Notes under the pieces: model-generated
Told to the model about the DNA's origin: nothing
Databases searched by the model: none
What the model saw: the letters and a program-made list of their open reading frames with translations, nothing else
Program-made: the position numbers and the translations under genes
Shown here: positions 13,987 through 59,988 of the stretch, one piece after another
Position numbering within the stretch: position 1 is the first letter of the stretch
Layout: each line of letters begins with the position of its first letter
Assembly: GCA_963837955.1 (NCBI GenBank)
Contig: CAWIPH010000002.1
Span: 2,698,966-2,762,965 of the forward strand
DNA from: an uncultured Verrucomicrobiae bacterium
GTDB lineage: Bacteria > Verrucomicrobiota > Verrucomicrobiia > Chthoniobacterales > JAFAMB01
Length of the DNA stretch: 64,000 bases
Reading direction: 5' to 3'

Positions 13987-14185
13987 GTAGCCTGATGCTC
14001 CAGCCTCAGGGAAAACGCTGGTGAACGGTGTTTAATGAAAGGGGCGGTGAGAGATTTCTGCCTGGGATCTGCCGATAGGCGTTCACCAATCCCCTCTCAC
14101 ACGCTGTAGCCCCCTGAGCCAGGAGGATCAGGCTACACTGCTTAGTGGATTTGTCATTTGTCATTTGGTATTCGTTATTCGCTGC
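13987..14185. repeat. Family-A inverted-repeat (MITE/REP-like) element plus adjoining heptamer tract
   Basis: TIRs are gtagcctgatgctccagcctcaggg (13987-14011) and ccctgagccaggaggatcaggctac (14112-14136), 22/25 complementary. Conserved core 'gagagatttctgcc..tgccgataggc'. A 'ttgtcatttgtcatttggtattcgttattcgc' tract runs to 9 nt before the next start codon. Confidence 0.8.
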
Positions 14186-28435: not shown

Positions 28436-28497
28436 GACACATGGGACATATGGGACTCATGAGACTTATGTGACCGATGGGACACATGAGTCGTGTC
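28436..28497. repeat. Nonamer-repeat element (ATGRGACNN units) inside the pntAA-pntAB intercistronic spacer
   Basis: atgggacat atgggactc atgagactt atgtgaccg atgggacac atgagtcgt. Shares 'catgagacttatg' and 'atgtgacc' with the copy at 49141-49200 (opposite orientation) and 'agacttatgag' with 54100-54167. Confidence 0.8.
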
Positions 28498-29949: not shown

Positions 29950-30477
29950 ATGGGATACGTCAACGCCACCCTCCTGGAGAGCGGTCTCGACCAGATCCGT
30001 CGTTCCCCCGCTGACCAGGGGAGAGTGGAGCTCATCGTTCGCCGGCCAGCCGAGAACGAGCGAGAAGTCGTCCCGGAGGCAATGCTGGATTCTGCCAAAG
30101 GTCTCGTCGGCGACACTTGGGCTAACGGATCGGCGCATCTCGACACGCAGCTGACGGTGATGAACGCTCGCGCAGCGCTGCTGGTGGCCGGTCAGGCGGA
30201 ACGGCGGCAACTTGCGGGCGACCAGCTCTATGTCGATCTCGACCTGAGCGAGGACAACATCCCGGCAGGCACGCGCTTGCAGCTCGGATCCGCAGTCATC
30301 GAGGTAACTAACTCGCCTCATCTCGGTTGCAACAAGTTCGCCGAGCGTTTCGGGCAAGATGCGCGCCGATTCGTAAACTCCGCCGTCGGCCGGCAGCTCC
30401 GGCTACGTGGTCTCAATGCCAAGGTCATTGTCCCTGGCGCCGTCCAGGTCGGCGATACGGTTCGGAAGCTATCGTAG
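29950..30477 (+). CDS. MOSC domain-containing protein
   Basis: ATG at 29950. '...GDQLYVDLDLSEDNIPAGTRLQLGSAVIEVTNSPHLGCNKF' is a MOSC beta-barrel type with the conserved Cys. Confidence 0.7.
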   Translation: MGYVNATLLESGLDQIRRSPADQGRVELIVRRPAENEREVVPEAMLDSAKGLVGDTWANGSAHLDTQLTVMNARAALLVAGQAERRQLAGDQLYVDLDLSEDNIPAGTRLQLGSAVIEVTNSPHLGCNKFAERFGQDARRFVNSAVGRQLRLRGLNAKVIVPGAVQVGDTVRKLS

Positions 30478-30539
30478 CCTGATGCTCTAGCCTCAGGGGT
30501 GTTGGTGATTAGGGATTAGTGATTGAAGGATCCGGCTAC
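30474..30539. repeat. Family-A element, truncated copy; its TAG is the MOSC gene stop codon
   Basis: gtagcctgatgctctagcctcagggg followed by the gtgttggtgattagggattagtgattgaagg arm and a short '..ccggctac' end. Confidence 0.7.
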
Positions 30540-49140: not shown

Positions 49141-49200
49141 CTCATAGGTCACATGCGACTCATAAGTCTCATGCGACCCACGAATCCTACGGCACCACCA
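49141..49200. repeat. Nonamer-repeat element (same subfamily as 28436-28497, opposite orientation)
   Basis: ctcataggt cacatgcga ctcataagt ctcatgcga cccacgaat cctacggca. Lies about 40 nt after the ggt stop. Confidence 0.75.
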
Positions 49201-51592: not shown

Positions 51593-54088
51593 ATGGCTCA
51601 GCACAACTCGTCGTCTAATCACGGCCGAATCGTGCGTTCGTCGCAGCAGAAAGGACCTGATCGCGATTTGATGCCTGATGGATCGGTGCCAGGATCGCAG
51701 TCACCGATAGAGCCTGATCCGGCCGAACAAGCAAAGCGCCATAAAGTCGCGGGCGGTTTTGGAGCGATCGTGCAAACCACGCGCTACGTCATAGGAAGAA
51801 TGGGAGTGACTCGCGGTACCTCGACGTTGCTCCGGCTAAATAAGGTTCACGGGTTTGATTGCCAGAGCTGCGCTTGGCCAAGTCCCGATGACCATCGCCA
51901 TATCGCAGAGTTTTGTGAAAACGGCGCCAAGGCGATATCGGATGAAGGGACGTTGCGCCGATTGACGCCTGAGTTTTTCGCGAAACACAGTATCCATCAA
52001 CTCCTCCTGATGTCTGACTTCTGGCTCAACGAGCAAGGTCGGTTGATCCATCCGATGATTTTACGAGTCAGGTCCAAGCATTATGAACCCATCTCTTGGG
52101 ACGAAGCATTCTCCCTTATCGCGGAAGAGTTGAATCGGCTCGGATCCCCCCATCAAGCCGCGTTCTACACATCTGGAAGGACCAGTAATGAAGCAGCTTA
52201 TCTCTACCAACTCTTCGCCCGGCAGTTCGGGACGAATAACCTCCCGGACTGTTCCAACATGTGCCACGAATCGAGCGGCGCTGCTTTATCGGAAACGATT
52301 GGGAGCGCTAAAGGCACCGTGACCCTGTATGATTTCGACATAGCCGAGGCAATTTTTATCGTCGGCCAGAATCCGGGCACTAACCATCCCCGGATGTTAA
52401 CTTCTCTGGAACGAGCAAAAAAGCGCGGCGCGAAAATCGTAAGCATTAATCCGCTCCCTGAGACCGGCAATTTTCGGTTTAAGAATCCGCAAGACTTCAA
52501 AAACCCGGTAACTGCGCTGAAGTCCACCTTTGGTAGTGGCACTCACCTTTCCGATTTGTGGTTGCCGGTAAAAATCAACGGCGATCTCGCCTTGTTTAAA
52601 GGCATCATGAAAGAGATGCTTGCGGCCGAAGACCAAAAGCCTGGATCGGTTTTCGATCACGATTTCATCACAAGGTACACCGACGGTTTTGAACCTTTCA
52701 TCGATTCGCTTCGGACCGCTCCGTGGGAGCCGGTTCTCGCGAGCTGCGGGTTGACCCGCGATCAGATCCGGCCGGCGGCGCAAATTGCGATGAACGCGAA
52801 GAGTATCATCTGTTGCTGGGCGATGGGCCTCACCCAACACCGCAACGCCGTGGCTACTCTGAGAGAAATCGTTAACTTTCTGCTGCTGTGCGGAAATATT
52901 GGGCGACCCGGCGCGGGCCCTTGCCGTGTGTGCGGCCATAGCAACGTACAGGGTGACCGGACGATGGGTATCTGGGGACAGCCGTCACCTGAGCTTCTCG
53001 ATAAGTTGGCGGAACGGTATCACTTCGAGCCGCCTCGTGAGATCGGAACCGATGTCGTTGATACGATCAAAGCTATGCACTGGGGCCGGATCAAAATTTT
53101 CTTCGCCATGGGCGGAAACTTCCTATCGGCAACTCCTGACACCGAATTCACCGCTGAAGCTCTACAGAATTGTCGTCTGACTGCACACGTCTCAACCAAA
53201 CTGAACCGTTCACATCTCATCACGGGACAGCAGGCATTGATCCTCCCCTGCCTCGGAAGGTCCGAAATCGATGAACAGAAAGGCGGTCCGCAATTCGTAA
53301 CGACTGAAGATAGTATGGGTATCATCAACCCATCTCGCGGACGGCTCCTCCCCGCTTCCGAACATCTGCTGAGCGAACCGGCGATCGTCGCCCGTCTCGC
53401 CCGGGCCGTGCTCAAAGAACGAAGCCAGCTCCCGTGGGAACAATGGATGAACGATTACTCGAAGATCCGCGACGAAATCGAGGCCGTCATTCCCGGATTT
53501 GACCGTTTCAACGAACGTATTGCGAAACACGTTTTCTATTTGCCAAATCCGCCGCGCGACAAGCGTGAGTTTGGAACAAAGAGCGGAAAAGCGAATTTTA
53601 CGATCAACCAACTCGAGATCCTCGATATTCCGCCGGCCCATTTTGTCTTAACGACGATTCGGAGTCACGATCAGTTCAACACCACGATCTACGGACTCAA
53701 TGACCGTTACCGCGGCATCTACAATGGGCGCCGCGTTCTGTTCATGAATCCTGAGGATATGAAGCAAGCTGGCCTTCAACAGGGCCAGCCTGTCGATATC
53801 ACGAGCCGCTTCGAAGGTCAGGAACGCGAGGCTCAGCATTTCCTGGTGGCCCCTTATTCCATTCCTCGACAGTGCGTTGCGACTTATTTCCCGGAGGGTA
53901 ACGTTCTCGTCCCGATCGGCAGCGCCGCCGCGATAAGTAATACCCCTACGTCCAAATCGATTATAGTCACCCTGACTCCGTCACCGAATGTCGAAGTTGT
54001 TCGCACCGAATTGTTCGCCAAGGTAGCGGAAGCGAAACGTTTGCCGGCCCAGATAGTCGCCGGGACCGCGAAGTTGGTAACGCGGTAG
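51593..54088 (+). CDS. FdhF/YdeP-family molybdopterin oxidoreductase (paralog 2)
   Basis: 831 aa, 'GFDCQSCAWP...FCENGAKA' Cys cluster, molybdopterin oxidoreductase body. Paralog of 30610-32898. Confidence 0.82.
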   Translation: MAQHNSSSNHGRIVRSSQQKGPDRDLMPDGSVPGSQSPIEPDPAEQAKRHKVAGGFGAIVQTTRYVIGRMGVTRGTSTLLRLNKVHGFDCQSCAWPSPDDHRHIAEFCENGAKAISDEGTLRRLTPEFFAKHSIHQLLLMSDFWLNEQGRLIHPMILRVRSKHYEPISWDEAFSLIAEELNRLGSPHQAAFYTSGRTSNEAAYLYQLFARQFGTNNLPDCSNMCHESSGAALSETIGSAKGTVTLYDFDIAEAIFIVGQNPGTNHPRMLTSLERAKKRGAKIVSINPLPETGNFRFKNPQDFKNPVTALKSTFGSGTHLSDLWLPVKINGDLALFKGIMKEMLAAEDQKPGSVFDHDFITRYTDGFEPFIDSLRTAPWEPVLASCGLTRDQIRPAAQIAMNAKSIICCWAMGLTQHRNAVATLREIVNFLLLCGNIGRPGAGPCRVCGHSNVQGDRTMGIWGQPSPELLDKLAERYHFEPPREIGTDVVDTIKAMHWGRIKIFFAMGGNFLSATPDTEFTAEALQNCRLTAHVSTKLNRSHLITGQQALILPCLGRSEIDEQKGGPQFVTTEDSMGIINPSRGRLLPASEHLLSEPAIVARLARAVLKERSQLPWEQWMNDYSKIRDEIEAVIPGFDRFNERIAKHVFYLPNPPRDKREFGTKSGKANFTINQLEILDIPPAHFVLTTIRSHDQFNTTIYGLNDRYRGIYNGRRVLFMNPEDMKQAGLQQGQPVDITSRFEGQEREAQHFLVAPYSIPRQCVATYFPEGNVLVPIGSAAAISNTPTSKSIIVTLTPSPNVEVVRTELFAKVAEAKRLPAQIVAGTAKLVTR

Positions 54089-54183
54089 CGATGCTTGAGC
54101 CTAAGACACCTAAGTCCCATAAGACTTATGAGGACCTATGGGTCACATGGGACTTAGGTGTCTTAGGAGGAACATCAGTCTAC
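54085..54183. repeat. Family-A element filling the whole spacer between two convergent genes; both GTAG termini supply the TAG stops
   Basis: Left end gtagcgatgcttgagcc (TAG 54086-88 is the stop of the + gene). Right end ggaggaacatcagtctac (cta 54180-82 is the TAG of the - gene). Perfect 21-bp internal inverted repeat at 54100-54120 / 54147-54167. Confidence 0.8.
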
Positions 54184-54518
54184 TTCGCGGCTCCCCGATA
54201 GACGATCGCCTGGACCCGCTCGAGCGTGACCAACCCGCCGGTAATTAATCCATCCAGCACGGGTAGAAAATCTCTAACTTTTTCCTCGCTATCGACTATC
54301 TCGATTACGATCGGCAAATCCATGGAGAGTCGAAGAATCTTTGTGGTGTGCAGATGACTCGATTTACCAAAACCCATCGGACCGCGGAGCACGGTCGCTC
54401 CGGCAAGTTTTCTTTCTCGCGCCTTCAACACAATCTGTTCGTAGAGTGATTTGCCCTGCCACTCGTCGGCCTCGCCGATATAGACCCGCAGGAGCATCGC
54501 ATCATGAGGGACATCCAT
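54180..54518 (-). CDS. DUF190 domain protein (CrcB-associated)
   Basis: 'LLRVYIGEADEWQGKSLYEQIVLKARERKLAGATVLRGPMGFG'. ATG at 54518. Confidence 0.78.
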   Translation of the reverse strand: MDVPHDAMLLRVYIGEADEWQGKSLYEQIVLKARERKLAGATVLRGPMGFGKSSHLHTTKILRLSMDLPIVIEIVDSEEKVRDFLPVLDGLITGGLVTLERVQAIVYRGAAK

Positions 54519-54534
54519 CTCTGTCTCCGAAGAC

Positions 54535-54924
54535 TTAACCAAGCACAAGCGTCGCTAACCACCAACCCGCCGCAACCATTCCGATACAGAGGATAGTTGA
54601 GAAAAAAATGTTGGCCAACGCTATCCAAAAACGTTTTTCGCGCAGAAGGTGAAAAGTTTGCAAGATAAACGAGGAAAAGGTAGTCAGGCCCCCGCAAATG
54701 CCAACCACAACGAAAGCGAGAACGATTTGGGCTAAGGCACGATGCAGCTCGGGTCTGGCGTAATTGAGTGCGAATCCGATGAGCAAACTCCCGGTCAGGT
54801 TCACCGCCAGAGTGCCAAAAGGTAACGTCTCTCCGATCCGTTGAGCCACCCAGCCGGATAAGCCGTAGCGCCAGATACTGCCAATGGCTCCCCCAACAAA
54901 AACGAGAAGGATCACGCCAATCAT
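54535..54924 (-). CDS. crcB: Fluoride channel CrcB/Fluc (copy B)
   Basis: Four-TM ~129 aa, 'GGAIGSIWRY', 'GICGGLTTFSSF' motifs. Confidence 0.87.
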   Translation of the reverse strand: MIGVILLVFVGGAIGSIWRYGLSGWVAQRIGETLPFGTLAVNLTGSLLIGFALNYARPELHRALAQIVLAFVVVGICGGLTTFSSFILQTFHLLREKRFWIALANIFFSTILCIGMVAAGWWLATLVLG

Positions 54925-55358
54925 TCTTCCCTCCCGTGCTGGAGCCGCCGCGCCAACGCTTCCATCAATCGCCCGGTCACAACGCAGACAAAATAGCCAG
55001 CGATAACCGCGCCCAGGCCGAGCAGGTGAGATGCGAGAATGTTCAGCAACGCTTCATTCCAGTCCCCGTTTTGCAACGATCGAAATGACAGGGCACTAAA
55101 TGCGCTGAAGGTCGTGTATCCGCCGCAAAACCCAGTCATTAAGACTAAGCGGGCGTTAGGCCCCAAATAGAAGCGGCTATCCGGCTCGGAAAGACCCTGC
55201 AGGGCTCCAATCAAGAGCGAACCGGTGAAATTTATGATCAACGTGGGCAACGGCGGCCACGAAGGATGCAGCCATTCGGCGACGCCGAAGCGGCAGAGGG
55301 TTCCGATTCCGCCGGCAATCCCAACCAATAAATATCGACGGCGTACGCCCTTCTTCAC
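54921..55358 (-). CDS. crcB: Fluoride channel CrcB/Fluc (copy A)
   Basis: 'GIAGGIGTLCRF', 'GFCGGYTTFSAF' motifs. GTG start; overlaps the downstream crcB by 4 nt. Confidence 0.85.
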   Translation of the reverse strand: MKKGVRRRYLLVGIAGGIGTLCRFGVAEWLHPSWPPLPTLIINFTGSLLIGALQGLSEPDSRFYLGPNARLVLMTGFCGGYTTFSAFSALSFRSLQNGDWNEALLNILASHLLGLGAVIAGYFVCVVTGRLMEALARRLQHGREE

Positions 55359-55556
55359 TCGATTTTATGTCGCGCCAAACCACCCTCTTCGCGCGGGTTC
55401 AATTCGTTGTCCAGCGAGTTGTCGTAACGCTTCTATTCACCTTTAGACAGAGTTATCGTGACGTTTTTCGCGCACGGCCACGGATCAACCCAAACCGGAA
55501 AAGTCTCGCGTACCATTCGCACTGGATTTTTTAGCCAGAACGGTAACTTAGCCCTC

Positions 55557-55898
55557 ATGCGCAGTTTGTTGTTATTTGCCCTGGCGACTGTAGCCAGCTC
55601 TCTTTGCCTTGCCGATGAGCCCACCGTTGATTCCCTCCCGACACCGGTGGCCAACACGCTTAAAGCGCAAGCTGGCAACGGAACCGTCCGAAACATTGAG
55701 ACATTTCAGTGGGGCGATTCCATCATCTACAAAATCGCGATCGACCAGAACGGGCAACCTTATCTGGAGCTGCAGATTGCAGACACCGGGCGGCTAGTTC
55801 GAGTAGATCAACTCGCTTCGGCAACGAGCGCAACGGATGATGATGATGATCAGACGGATGCTTCGCCGACACCGTCACCGAGTGCTCCTCCGCGTTAG
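55557..55898 (+). CDS. Small secreted hypothetical protein with acidic/Pro-rich tail
   Basis: ATG 55557 gives signal peptide MRSLLLFALATVASSLCLA, a beta-rich core, then a C-terminal 'TDDDDDQTDASPTPSPSAPP'. Confidence 0.5.
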   Translation: MRSLLLFALATVASSLCLADEPTVDSLPTPVANTLKAQAGNGTVRNIETFQWGDSIIYKIAIDQNGQPYLELQIADTGRLVRVDQLASATSATDDDDDQTDASPTPSPSAPPR

Positions 55899-55963
55899 CC
55901 AAAGCGCGTCAACATGAGGAAGCTCCGATCAATCCCCCGAAGGGGGAAGAGGACTCAGCCCGG

Positions 55964-56134
55964 GGTTTAACCCTGGTTTAACCCCGGGATCAGTCGTATT
56001 AACGCGGTATGCCCTGTAGGGGCACCAGGATCGAGCGTCACAGCCGACAACCCAATGGGAGCATTCTAATACTAGCGCCGCTTTCAGGGCGCAACGCTTC
56101 AAATACCTTGCCCGGGGTCAAAACCCGGGCTGAG
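55964..56134. repeat. Family-D structured element closed by ctcagcccgggg / cccgggctgag
   Basis: An 11-bp terminal inverted repeat encloses the hairpins cccggggtt..aaccccggg, gccc-tgtag-gggc, gcgcc-gctttca-gggcgc and cccggg-gtcaaaa-cccggg. Confidence 0.6.
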
Positions 56135-57083: not shown

Positions 57084-57884
57084 ATGCAAAATCGTATCGA
57101 TGAGCAGTTTGAGGCACTTCGTCGCAAGGGTCGAGCTGGGTTCACCGCCTATATCACCGGCGGAGATCCTAACTTGGAGCAGACCGTCGACATCGCCGTG
57201 GCGCTAGCAGAAGCAGGGACCGATTTTCTCGAGCTGGGAGTTCCTTTTTCTGATCCGTTGGCGGACGGTATCGCCAATCAGCTGGGAGCGCAGCGCGCCC
57301 TAGCCGCGGGAACCACTCTCCCAAAACTGCTCTATACCATTTCTCAGATTCGTAGCCGAATTCCGATACCGATCATTCTCTACAGTTATCTCAACCCGAT
57401 CTATCAATATGGATTCGAGCAATTCGAGCAGGACGCGGTTGCCGTCGGAATCGATGGACTATTGCTCCTGGACCTGCCACCAGATGAGCATCTGGTATCA
57501 GATCGGAGCAGTTTTCTGCACCGAATCCGCTTGATCGCACCCACTACAACCGAAGATCGAATCCGAACCATTGTCGCACGGGCCAGCGGCTTCATTTATT
57601 ACGTTTCACGAGAGGGCGTGACCGGAGAGCAAAGCACATTATCCGATTCGATTGCCGCCCAAGTAGAAAAGATTCGACGATATTCTGCCCTCCCGATTGC
57701 CGTCGGATTCGGAATCTCGACTCCAGAACAAGCCGCGCAGGTGGCCGCCCTGGCAGACGCTGTCGTCGTGGGGAGCGCGATCGTTCGGAGGATTGGGGAA
57801 CTAGCGAATGATCCTGCGATCGCTGTCAAACTCCGGGAACTCGTTCGGCCTATGGTGCAAGCGGTTAAATCGGCGCAGAAGTAG
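57084..57884 (+). CDS. trpA: Tryptophan synthase alpha chain
   Basis: ATG 57084: 'MQNRIDEQFEALRRKGRAGFTAYITGGDP', 'LELGVPFSDPLADG', 'YYVSREGVTG', 'GFGISTPEQA'. Confidence 0.93.
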   Translation: MQNRIDEQFEALRRKGRAGFTAYITGGDPNLEQTVDIAVALAEAGTDFLELGVPFSDPLADGIANQLGAQRALAAGTTLPKLLYTISQIRSRIPIPIILYSYLNPIYQYGFEQFEQDAVAVGIDGLLLLDLPPDEHLVSDRSSFLHRIRLIAPTTTEDRIRTIVARASGFIYYVSREGVTGEQSTLSDSIAAQVEKIRRYSALPIAVGFGISTPEQAAQVAALADAVVVGSAIVRRIGELANDPAIAVKLRELVRPMVQAVKSAQK

Positions 57885-58089
57885 CCTGGTGCTTCCTCCT
57901 CGTTCCCCCAAAGCCAAAAACACGGCGGGGCGTGTCGGTGATCGGTGAGAGGTGATTAGTGATTGGTGAAAGGGGGATGAGAGATTTCAGCCGAGGGGCT
58001 TGCCGATAGGCACCCGCCACTCGCCAATCACTTCTTACCTCTCACAATCGCTGCAGCCCTGGGTTCCTGAGCCAGGAGAATCAGGCTAC
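57881..58089. repeat. Family-A element, largest copy (TIRs + GGTGATT-type arms + conserved core); its TAG is the trpA stop codon
   Basis: gtagcctggtgc... left end (TAG 57882-84). Arms are 57934-57970 and 58021-58050. Core 'gagagatttcagcc..tgccgataggc'. Right end cctgagccaggagaatcaggctac. Confidence 0.8.
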
Positions 58090-58771: not shown

Positions 58772-59893
58772 ATGTTAAGCGCGGGGATCGTCGGTTTGCC
58801 TAACGTTGGCAAATCCACTCTTTTCAACGCGGTAACGCGGACGCGGAAAGCGGAAGCGGCTAACTACCCATTCTGTACCATTGAGCCAAACCAAGGGGTA
58901 GTCACTGTTCCGGACTCGCGGTTAGATCGGCTTGCCACCCTCTCGAAGTCTCAAAAGGTCGTCCCGGCTGCGATTGAGTTTGTCGATATTGCAGGACTAG
59001 TTCGCGGCGCGAGCCAAGGCGAAGGCCTGGGTAACCAATTTCTTAGCCATATCCGTGAAGTGGATGCAATCGTTCAGGTGGTCCGATGCTTTACGGACGG
59101 GGACATCCACCATGTAAGCGGGTCCATCGACCCAATCCGTGATATTGAAGTCGTCAACACCGAGCTTATCCTGGCCGATATCGCCTCTCTGCAAAAACGC
59201 GGCGACCGCCTGCAAAAACAAGTCCGTTCAGGCGATAAGACCGCAAAAGCGGAGGCCGCTCTCATCGAGCGGATTTTACCGCATCTGAACGACGGTAAGC
59301 CAGCCACAACGTTTCCGTACTCGTCGGAAGAAGCCGCGATCGTCCGCTCCTTCCTTCTGCTGACGGGAAAGCCGACAATTTTTGCCTGTAACGTCGCAGA
59401 ATCCGATTTAGTCGCTTTCTCCCAGGAGACCAAAACCGCGGCGTCTGAATACGTCACCCGGGTCAGCGATTATGTCACTTCGCATCTTTCCACTCAATCG
59501 GTGGTGATCAGCGCCCAAATCGAGAGCGAACTCATCGATCTATCCGCCACCGAAGCGATCGAGTATCTCGCCGGTTTGGGCGTAAAGGAGAGCGGAGTCG
59601 GAAGTTTGATTCGTTCGGTGTACGGCCTCTTGGGCTTAAGGACTTACTTCACCACAGGAGAAAAGGAAACGCGAGCTTGGACGATCCATGCCGGTGATAA
59701 GGCTCCGGCCGCCGCCGGGGTCATCCATTCCGACTTTGAGCGCGGCTTCATTGCTGCCGAAACCGTCCATTTTGAAGATCTTATTCAGCTCGGGACATTT
59801 GGTAAGGCTCGGGAGGCCGGAAAGTTGAGGATTGAAGGCAAAGAGTATGTCGTCAAAGATGGCGACGTGATGGAGTTCCGATTCAACGTCTAG
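58772..59893 (+). CDS. ychF: Ribosome-binding ATPase YchF
   Basis: '[16 protein letters not shown]' P-loop, '[12 protein letters not shown]', C-terminal TGS-like '[27 protein letters not shown]'. Confidence 0.95.
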
Positions 59894-59988
59894 TAGCCTG
59901 ATGCTCTTGGCTCGGGAACTCATCGCTATAAAAGTGCAAGATCATCGATTCTCCATATCGGATCCCTGAGGCTGGAGCATCAGGCTAC
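59893..59988. repeat. Family-A element, minimal copy abutting the ychF TAG
   Basis: gtagcctgatgctcttggctcggg ... ccctgaggctggagcatcaggctac. The G of the stop codon is the first element base, and the element's own TAG is the next in-frame codon. Confidence 0.8.

Follow-up and report, generated by a model that had tools for sequence, protein, structure and literature searches.

A palindromic element that holds both stop codons of a convergent gene pair is probably a decayed GTAG-headed REP doublet in an uncultured Verrucomicrobiae bacterium

The gap between two convergent genes in an uncultured Verrucomicrobiae bacterium is filled by one palindromic element of 99 bp, which is probably a decayed, non-autonomous REP doublet (REPIN-like) of the GTAG-tagged REP superfamily. 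The element lies in a 64,000-nt stretch of contig CAWIPH010000002.1 (the window; Table 1), and the gap measures 91 nt between both stop codons. The doublet would consist of two inverted heads, one derived from the hairpin type and the other from the TCCTCC type, as in many canonical doublets of the family, around a palindromic array of the period-9 repeats found scattered in the spacers of the genome. This removes a false lead, as a hairpin holding both stops would be an expected by-product of a GTAG-headed REP family and no new regulatory device. It also documents such a family, together with a RAYT-like gene, for a soil lineage of uncultured Verrucomicrobiota.

Table 1. Features of the focal gap and family doublets in the window (positions are those of the window)
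Feature	Position	Strand	Remarks
Palindromic element, 99 bp	54085..54183	.	Probable decayed GTAG-headed REP doublet with period-9 palindromic core
Left head GTAGCGATGCTTGAGCCTAAGACA	54085..54108	+	Resembles hairpin-type head GTAGCCTGATGCTCCAGCCTCAGG with a 2-nt deletion; holds the YdeP-like TAG (54086-88)
Left arm, perfect 21-bp inverted repeat	54100..54120	+	9-mers CCTAAGACA / CCTAAGTCC / CAT...
Loop, 26 nt	54121..54146	.	Further 8-bp inner stem on the + RNA
Right arm, perfect 21-bp inverted repeat	54147..54167	-	
Right head, - strand reading GTAGACTGATGTTCCTCCTAAGAC	54160..54183	-	Resembles TCCTCC-type head GTAGCCTGATGCTTCCTCCTTCGT; holds the DUF190 TAG (cta 54180-82)
FdhF/YdeP-family molybdopterin oxidoreductase gene, 831 aa	51593..54088	+	TIGR01701, 904 bits; TAG inside left head
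DUF190 gene, 122 aa	54180..54548	-	Last of crcB-crcB-DUF190 operon; Pfam DUF190, E 1.4e-39; stop inside right head
Canonical family doublet, 150 bp	13987..14136	.	
Family doublet, 66 bp	30474..30539	.	Left GTAG is the stop of the upstream gene; C2:2729439
Family doublet, 209 bp	57881..58089	.	TCCTCC-type and hairpin-type heads; left GTAG is the stop of the upstream 338-aa gene; C2:2756846
Family doublet, 96 bp	59893..59988	.	

An earlier, sequence-only reading of the window had described a single element that fills the convergent gap and carries both stops in its termini, with a perfect 21-bp inverted repeat around a 26-nt loop, and this description is accurate. The outer GTAG...CTAC ends of the element hold the stops of both genes. 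The repeat, CCTAAGACACCTAAGTCCCAT, has 0 mismatches between its arms, and none is expected in shuffles; TRF gives the core a periodicity of 9. The stable hairpin that had been expected at the 3' end of both transcripts is borne out by the predicted folds, in which the whole element forms one single hairpin of -63 kcal/mol on the + RNA and -59.3 kcal/mol on the - RNA (z -7.8 and -8.8, respectively). In the predicted fold, the UAG of the + gene is paired with CUA, the complement of the other gene's UAG. A BLAST search of the 99-bp element against the genome returned only the element itself, plus short matches to period-9 arrays or chance matches within genes. The inner 21-mer has no second copy in the genome, and exact scans for it in genome-representative and metagenome collections came back empty. 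In an Rfam scan of 53500-56000, the element matched no family and no fluoride riboswitch turned up; the sole match in that interval was a sub-threshold one to Acido-Lenti-1 at 55933-55988.

The genome carries a repeat family of about 250-330 heads in 156 clusters, with 285 heads lying within 2 mismatches of GTAGCCTGATGCTCC. Each head consists of GTAG followed by an 8-position hairpin with compensatory changes. For example, the hairpin beside GTAG is 94.1% paired compared to 80.5% in shuffles (0 of 500 as high), 45 hairpin cells are altered on both sides against 15.7 expected, and double changes occur at 4 of the 7 pairs. Columns 1-4 are invariant or nearly so across 61 distinct head sequences. 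Inverted doublets make up 71 of the clusters; they are 66-210 bp long and have variable interiors of 7-9-mer arrays. By crude gene calls, 149 of the 156 clusters are extragenic, and 51 lie in convergent gaps (33% of clusters versus 17% of all gaps). A Y1 transposase gene at C2:3780614-3781204 has inverted family heads on both sides and its own stop inside a GTAG head. The best NCBIfam match of its protein is NF047646, REP-associated tyrosine transposase, at 66 bits (below the cut-off of 80), and the sole PDB match is 4ER8 (TnpArep) at 23 bits, with the HUH and Y-x-x-x-NP motifs aligned. The GTAG and hairpin heads, the doublets, the enrichment in convergent gaps, and the RAYT-like gene together lead to the assignment of the repeats to a GTAG-tagged REP/REPIN family. 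A RAYT-type HUH/tyrosine transposase, such as the one encoded at this locus between the same heads, may have spread the family. There are 248 heads within 1 mismatch here; four congeners have 23, 16, 2, and 1, and relatives further away have 1 at most. The family sequence GTAGCCTGATGCTCCAGCCTCAGG is nearly species-specific among the genomes compared here. This lineage-specific expansion (248 heads against 1-23 in congeners) is an indirect sign that the family has been mobile. Classical MITEs carry a target-site duplication on either side of their terminal inverted repeats. The focal element was rejected as one of these since no such duplication flanks it (...aacgcg / element / ttcgcg...), and inspection of the listed family heads revealed no common flanking duplication.

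The GTAG-tagged REP superfamily has been reported in the Proteobacteria, Cyanobacteria, Chloroflexi, and the PVC superphylum, including Verrucomicrobia, with 24 GTAG families described (Di Nocera, De Gregorio and Rocco 2013, PMC3733652). The likeness to that superfamily extends to the GTAG tag followed by a short stem-loop, the many intergenic copies, the preference for convergent or tandem gaps, the inverted dimers, and the TAG-supplying termini. The focal copy differs in that it seems to have largely lost the stem-loop and has a period-9 palindrome instead. As in the REPIN/RAYT system (Bertels and Rainey 2011, PMC3116915; Nunvar et al. 2010, PMC2817692; E. coli TnpArep structure 4ER8, PMC3479197), inverted REP doublets form long hairpins, and a single-copy HUH/Y1 transposase gene is flanked by REPs. 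REPs are also known immediately after rayt stops (Nunvar et al., PMC2817692), much as the RAYT-like gene here stops in a GTAG head. Unlike in that system, the transposase is only distantly related, as the above scores against 4ER8 and NF047646 indicate, and the doublets are long, with variable interiors.

The two ends of the focal element resemble the heads to different degrees. The right end differs from GTAGCCTGATGCTCC by 2 substitutions in 15, whereas the left end has no match to it within 3 substitutions and requires a 2-nt deletion plus substitutions. The earlier statement that both termini match the family-A consensus thus stands for the right end and fails for the left. Compared over 24 nt, the left end is at edit distance 6 from the hairpin-type head and the right end at 5 from the TCCTCC-type head. 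Among all genomic GTAG sites, distances of 5-6 form the zone where decayed members and the tail of chance matches overlap; 1.2% of the sites, mostly true members, are at a distance of 5 or less, and 0.47% are at exactly 6. The GTAG tetranucleotide is present at both outer ends. Of the hairpin beside it, about 3 of 7 pairs are left in the left head (read from the aligned letters), and the right head belongs to the TCCTCC type, which is without a GTAG-adjoining hairpin. The GTAG-adjoining REP hairpin therefore seems to have been largely lost in the focal copy.

One could consider instead that the element is a local palindrome grown from period-9 short-tandem-repeat modules, the GTAG...CTAC ends being native stop contexts that look like heads by chance. 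The genome does contain about 24 intergenic period-9 arrays (YATRRGWCN), with none in a reversed-genome control, and the 23 other arrays have no convincing family heads adjoining them. The only candidate near these is a GTGG-start match at C2:2727476 at distance 6, which is in the chance range. The combination of heads with nonamers is thus effectively unique to the focal element. Also, distances such as those of its termini are reached by 0.1-0.5% of random GTAG sites, and the YdeP orthologs of two other genomes (G003 and G004) have the same cgGTAG stop context. Against this, two inverted head-like ends at such distances would be expected about 0.04 times per genome if they were independent, an estimate from GTAG-site frequencies. 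The letters common to both ends, GTAG.C.GATG.T, are the most conserved core of the family, and the pairing of a hairpin-type head on the left with a TCCTCC-type head on the right is a standard family architecture (e.g., window 57881-58089 and C2:3130861-3131062). Finally, the DUF190 stop is TGA, not TAG, in all four REP-less orthologs read; the ancestral stop having been TGA, the present TAG is taken to be borne by the element. A local origin with chance ends is therefore unlikely.

The element appears to have left the proteins nearly as they were. The DUF190 protein ends in ...VYRGAAK*, and its REP-less ortholog in G001 ends in ...VYRGATE* with a TGA stop. The two are equal in length, whereas three further orthologs exceed the focal protein by 1 aa. 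The tail of YdeP varies within the genus anyway (AKL*, AKLVTR*, AKLMTDR*, AKLMTDGQR*). The proposal that both coding sequences had been adjusted to end in the element is not supported by this comparison, and the orthologs point to little adjustment. Element-less orthologs with unchanged C-termini and the same TAG stops had been named as the outcome that would speak against the sequence-only reading; the unchanged length was found, and the shared TAG was not, given the ancestral TGA of DUF190. In the sister species G004, the YdeP and DUF190 orthologs both stop at the TAG of another repeat, one headed by GGTAGG, with its own copy of a repeat of about 115 nt after each gene. The two contig ends concerned have no reverse-complement overlap, so that one element between YdeP and DUF190 in this species is unproven.

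The possible effects of the hairpin on RNA need to be weighed separately. An intrinsic terminator is a GC-rich stem followed by a U-rich tract within 0-2 nt. Here, AGGAACAUC comes after the stem on the + RNA and CUCAAGCAU does so on the - RNA; no U-tract flanks it on either strand, and the stem with U-tract that defines an intrinsic terminator is absent. A promoter and terminator scan of 53800-54500 on both strands found no terminator-like site and no promoter. Bidirectional intrinsic terminators between convergent genes resemble the focal element in being symmetric hairpins between two 3' ends, but differ from it in the U/A tracts flanking the stem. The proposal that selection had placed the hairpin as a dedicated bidirectional terminator or 3'-end module, both genes having adapted to stop inside it, is very unlikely. 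In its favor, the hairpin is very stable and symmetric with both stops in its foot, convergent gaps are enriched for REP-type elements, and the orthologous gap of G004 has GTAG-headed repeats at both gene ends. Against it, the terminator signature is missing, the inner repeat occurs in this genome only, the length of DUF190 is unchanged compared to G001, and the element is not conserved, two relatives (G001 and G007) having the same convergent pair but unrelated spacers and stops TAA/TGA or TAG/TGA. The ends also probably derive from a dispersed REP/REPIN family with a RAYT-like transposase, and this family donates stops throughout and has produced the same geometry six times.

The donation of stops would follow from the makeup of the heads. 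Two of their three frames contain a stop (gTAG and GTA-GCC-TGA), so a copy at or just inside the end of a gene would terminate the protein at once and be tolerated. Copies of the family would persist mainly in 3' gene gaps, and heads landing on gene ends may be how both focal genes came to stop at the TAG of the element. Counts can now be put on this process: of the 285 heads, 23 donate a TAG and 12 the TGA of GTAGCCTGA to the adjoining gene (about 12%), and the open frames of at least 200 codons that enter heads do so in the TAG frame in 22 cases, in the TGA frame in 13, and in the stop-less frame in 0, so that two frames are used and the third never. Both stops lie in heads in 6 of the 761 convergent pairs. 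GTAG REP termini are known to often supply the TAG stop to flanking ORFs, and REPs in convergent gaps lie at most 20 bp from both ORFs (Di Nocera et al. 2013, PMC3733652). Since GTAG REPs are known to lend TAG to neighboring genes, the focal arrangement is real but ordinary.

An ordinary origin may still have consequences for RNA. Both convergent transcripts would end in or traverse a very stable hairpin, which could shield the 3' ends from exonucleases and impede read-through into the opposing gene. With both stops at the base of the stem and 0 nt away from the structure, termination would require the ribosome to melt the hairpin. [quoted passage not shown] The focal element resembles those REPs in placing a stable structure within the downstream footprint of the ribosome, here at 0 nt and for both genes. 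It differs from them in that the stop codon itself lies within the predicted stem. The hairpin may plausibly act at the RNA 3' end or in translation.

A modest side observation concerns whether heads insert, or are selected, at stops. In about 10-12 of the 23 genes that end in a head TAG, the protein is exactly as long as same-genus orthologs without a family head, and in cases 0, 2, 5, 15, 23, 27, and 29, at least one equal-length ortholog stops at TAA or TGA. The offset-0 class is 3-6 times as populated as any offset 3-10 nt downstream. That REP heads preferentially replace native stops in situ, beyond mere tolerance at gene ends, is nonetheless improbable. If true, it would mean that RAYT-driven insertion prefers targets at or beside stops or, alternatively, that there is selection for stops in the foot of a hairpin, as in the control of translation termination or mRNA decay. 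A simple target-site model, with insertion after a pre-existing GT or TA in the stop, is unsupported; it was rejected because orthologs do not consistently have G as the third base of the last codon, TGA was the ancestral stop in several cases, and no remnant of a displaced stop remains at the far end of the elements. For annotation of this genome, a rule can be given: a gene ending in gTAGCCTGA or GTAGCCTGA ends in a repeat, which may also encode the final one or two residues of the protein.

The 99-bp element fills the gap between the convergent YdeP-like and DUF190 genes, and the observation made in the sequence-only reading is confirmed. The YdeP-like gene ends in GTA ACG CGG TAG, with its TAG at 54086-88, the DUF190 gene ends in cta at 54180-82, and the two stops are spaced 91 nt apart. 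The 21-bp inverted repeat that had been described is present as one copy of a 21-mer per strand, where none is expected by chance. The stem energy it had called for is predicted at -63 kcal/mol in the + RNA (z -7.8) and -59.3 kcal/mol in the - RNA (z -8.8), with the 121-nt region folding as a single long hairpin. This fold pairs the YdeP-like UAG with the CUA complementary to the DUF190 UAG, a geometric consequence of ends that are GTAG...CTAC inverted. The statement that both termini match a 15-mer consensus holds for the right end (two mismatches) and fails for the left, where the consensus is absent within three substitutions and needs a 2-nt deletion.

Coordinates of genes, repeats and arrays (bare numbers are window positions; C1 and C2 are the two contigs of the host genome)
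Feature	Position	Strand	Remarks
FdhF/YdeP-family molybdopterin oxidoreductase gene	51593..54088	+	831 aa; TIGR01701, 904 bits
DUF190 gene	54180..54548	-	122 aa; final gene of crcB-crcB-DUF190 operon; E 1.4e-39
21-mer CCTAAGACACCTAAGTCCCAT	54100-20; 54147-67		one copy per strand
BIME-like tandem arrays	C1:393761-394258; C2:4992481-4992811; C2:1047287-1047836		alternating head variants, period ~100-125 bp; of these, the first two occupy convergent gaps and give both stops
Doublets with a TCCTCC-type end (examples)	57881-58089; C2:3130861-3131062
Convergent pairs with both stops in heads	C2:810678, 2262965, 2753053 (present pair), 3130869, 4992484; C1:393764
Degenerate 9-mer tandem arrays, window	28440-28466; 49143-49178
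Degenerate 9-mer arrays, ~22 other genome sites (examples)	C2:4126543-4126671; C1:80362-80401
RAYT-like Y1 transposase gene	C2:3780614-3781204		196 aa; Y1_Tnp match and flanking heads

A large family has GTAGCCTGATGCTCC as its head. In the window there are nine head matches, compared to 1.4 expected, and they make up five elements; the genome (5.62 Mb, two contigs) has 285 heads at no more than 2 mismatches. The consensus is GTAG followed by CCTGAtGC-tcca-GCcTCAGG, and sub-variants such as GATCC..GGCTC, GATCG..CGCTC and GGCGGA..TCCGC have both stem sides changed together. In a set of 61 distinct heads, 94.1% of the cells in the proposed hairpin are paired versus 80.5% in shuffles (0/500 reach 94.1%), doubly changed cells number 45 versus 15.7 expected, and the signal is lost once the partner is shifted out of register. 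A second head type, GTAGCCTGATGCTTCCTCCTTCG... (TCCTCC-type), is without this hairpin and is often the opposite end of a doublet. The 156 head clusters include 71 doublets, 65 singletons and some tandem BIME-like arrays; by gap, 51 are convergent, 77 tandem and 21 divergent, and convergent gaps are 17% of all gaps. Heads at no more than 1 mismatch number 248 in the host, 23, 16, 2 and 1 in four congeners and at most one elsewhere, and the exact 24-mer was found in only one further species-representative genome, a Verrucomicrobiota MAG. Such counts are typical of a lineage-specific REP/REPIN expansion. Among the taxa with GTAG REPs is the PVC superphylum, Verrucomicrobia included (PMC3733652).

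The 99-bp element is quite probably a worn member of this GTAG-headed REP family. Over 24 nt, its right end is 5 edits from a TCCTCC-type head and its left end 6 edits from a hairpin-type head, the same asymmetry as in canonical doublets. Only 1.2% of all genomic GTAG sites lie at distance 5 or less and 0.47% at exactly 6 (the chance mode is 10), so that an inverted pair with such distances is expected ~0.04 times per genome by our own estimate, which takes the ends as independent. Against membership, the REP hairpin, by a reading of the letters, is largely gone, the inner 21-mer has no copy elsewhere in any collection searched, and the interior, a palindrome of period-9 units, is assigned to a separate class of ~24 intergenic YATRRGWCN arrays, for example CATGGGACT / CATGAGTCC / CATAAGACT. 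This pattern gives 44 matches on both strands (38 of them outside gene calls) and none in the reversed-genome control, and the element's core is its palindromic version. No convincing family heads were found near the other period-9 arrays, with a single chance-range match (distance 6) at one of them.

Stop donation is a habit of the whole family. With a crude codon-usage gene caller written for the analysis (4,522 genes), 23 of the 285 heads provide the neighbouring gene's stop with their TAG and another 12 with the TGA of GTA-GCC-TGA, and each offset 3-60 nt downstream has 0-7 heads. The head has stops in two frames (gTAG and GTA-GCC-TGA) and none in the third. Independently of gene calling, ORFs of 200 codons or longer that enter a head do so 22 times in frame with its TAG and 13 times in frame with its TGA, with no case in the third frame; therefore, read-through insertions appear to have been purged. 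A proposed survey of convergent pairs found both stops inside heads of a gap-filling element or array in six of 761, including the present one, and one stop in a further 13. The donation of TAG stops to flanking genes by GTAG REP termini is already in the literature (PMC3733652), and with it the striking feature of this element, a probable decayed member of the family.

At the orthologous site in relatives, the element is not conserved. The DUF190 protein, ending ...VYRGAAK before TAG, has the same length in G001 (...VYRGATE, TGA, no family head at the stop) and in G007, of another genus (...MYRGEKR, TGA). It is one residue longer in G002 (...MYRGRHPG, TGA), G003 (...MYRGQRPG, TGA) and G004 (...VYRGAQDR, TAG within another GTAG repeat), so the protein was not reshaped, and the comparison indicates that the element's TAG took over from a TGA stop at the same codon or the one next to it. 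The YdeP tail after the conserved ...AGTAKL or equivalent is VTR here, MTDR in G003, MTDGQR in G004 and nothing in G002; G001 ends ...ARSEGQL with TAA. The cgGTAG context of the stop is common to three genomes, and the tail is simply variable. The claim that both coding sequences were adjusted to end in the hairpin is thus not borne out, and the interpretation is partly supported. The counter-case named with it, orthologs with identical C-termini and TAG stops, is found for length (+1 at most) but not for the four TGA stops.

The convergent YdeP/DUF190 pair also occurs in G001 and G007 with spacers unrelated to the element; the gene order is older than the element. The crcB-crcB-DUF190 block (54180-55358) is present in both but absent at G003 locus L005, between the YdeP ortholog and that of 55458-55898; members of the genus thus differ in having it at this site. 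Upstream of the operon (55359-55460), no fluoride riboswitch and no Rfam family was found at E<=1. In G004, YdeP and DUF190 are each followed by a copy of a different GGTAGG-headed ~115-nt repeat that supplies both TAG stops. The congeners G001, G003 and G004 carry a different GTAG family (cGGTAGGGACGCGCTCC...GCGCGTCC, and the ~115-nt repeat GGTAGG...GCGGTAGGGC; e.g., loci L002 3636-3760 and L140), which is likewise the TAG source for many of their genes.

The last 60 residues of 35 head-ended genes, concatenated as a query, retrieved 110 regions from four congeners for C-terminal comparison. Of the 23 head-TAG genes, ~10-12 are identical in length to orthologs without a family head, ~10 are shortened by 1-9 residues and two are extended; genes stopping at the head TGA have their final two residues (Val-Ala) encoded by the repeat. 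In cases 0, 2, 5, 15, 23, 27 and 29, TAA or TGA is the stop of one or more orthologs of equal length, so the head took the place of the earlier stop; for cases 9, 12 and 16, TAG was probably the ancestral stop too. There is a small excess of head-ended genes at exactly zero offset; simple GT or TA target models, tested against flanks, found no support. A general preference of REP heads for replacing native stops in situ is considered improbable. In case 18 (C2:2263196 and G003:C148), two species share an orthologous REP, interior included, at the same gene end. A deletion of about four codons sets the two junctions apart, and the stop is the head TAG in one species and the head TGA in the other; evidently, the tails of genes slide while heads remain fixed.

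A REP copy would have landed on both gene ends, an event tolerated since a head ends translation immediately, and its interior would afterwards have decayed or been replaced by period-9 repeats. A terminator scan of the region found no U-tract; therefore, the hairpin is not a canonical intrinsic terminator, and a shared bidirectional terminator of that type is not upheld. The hairpin may protect 3' ends from exonucleases, as for E. coli REPs. It may also lower translation via ribosome stalling (Liang et al. 2015, as cited in PMC12306157), since it starts at the stop codon.

Of eight Y1_Tnp matches in the genome, one, the RAYT-like gene, has family heads on both sides in opposite orientation. 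The top NCBIfam model is NF047646, REP-associated tyrosine transposase (66 bits, short of the 80-bit cut-off); the score against the IS200 model is 26 bits. In the PDB, only 4ER8 (E. coli TnpArep) is related, and the protein aligns with it at the HUH motif (HVH vs HMH) and the Y-I-x-x-N-P tyrosine motif (YIRDNP). Across C2:3780150-3781450, three heads in one orientation and then an inverted one just ahead lie 5' of the gene and three inverted heads 3', and the gene itself stops at the TAG of a GTAG head.
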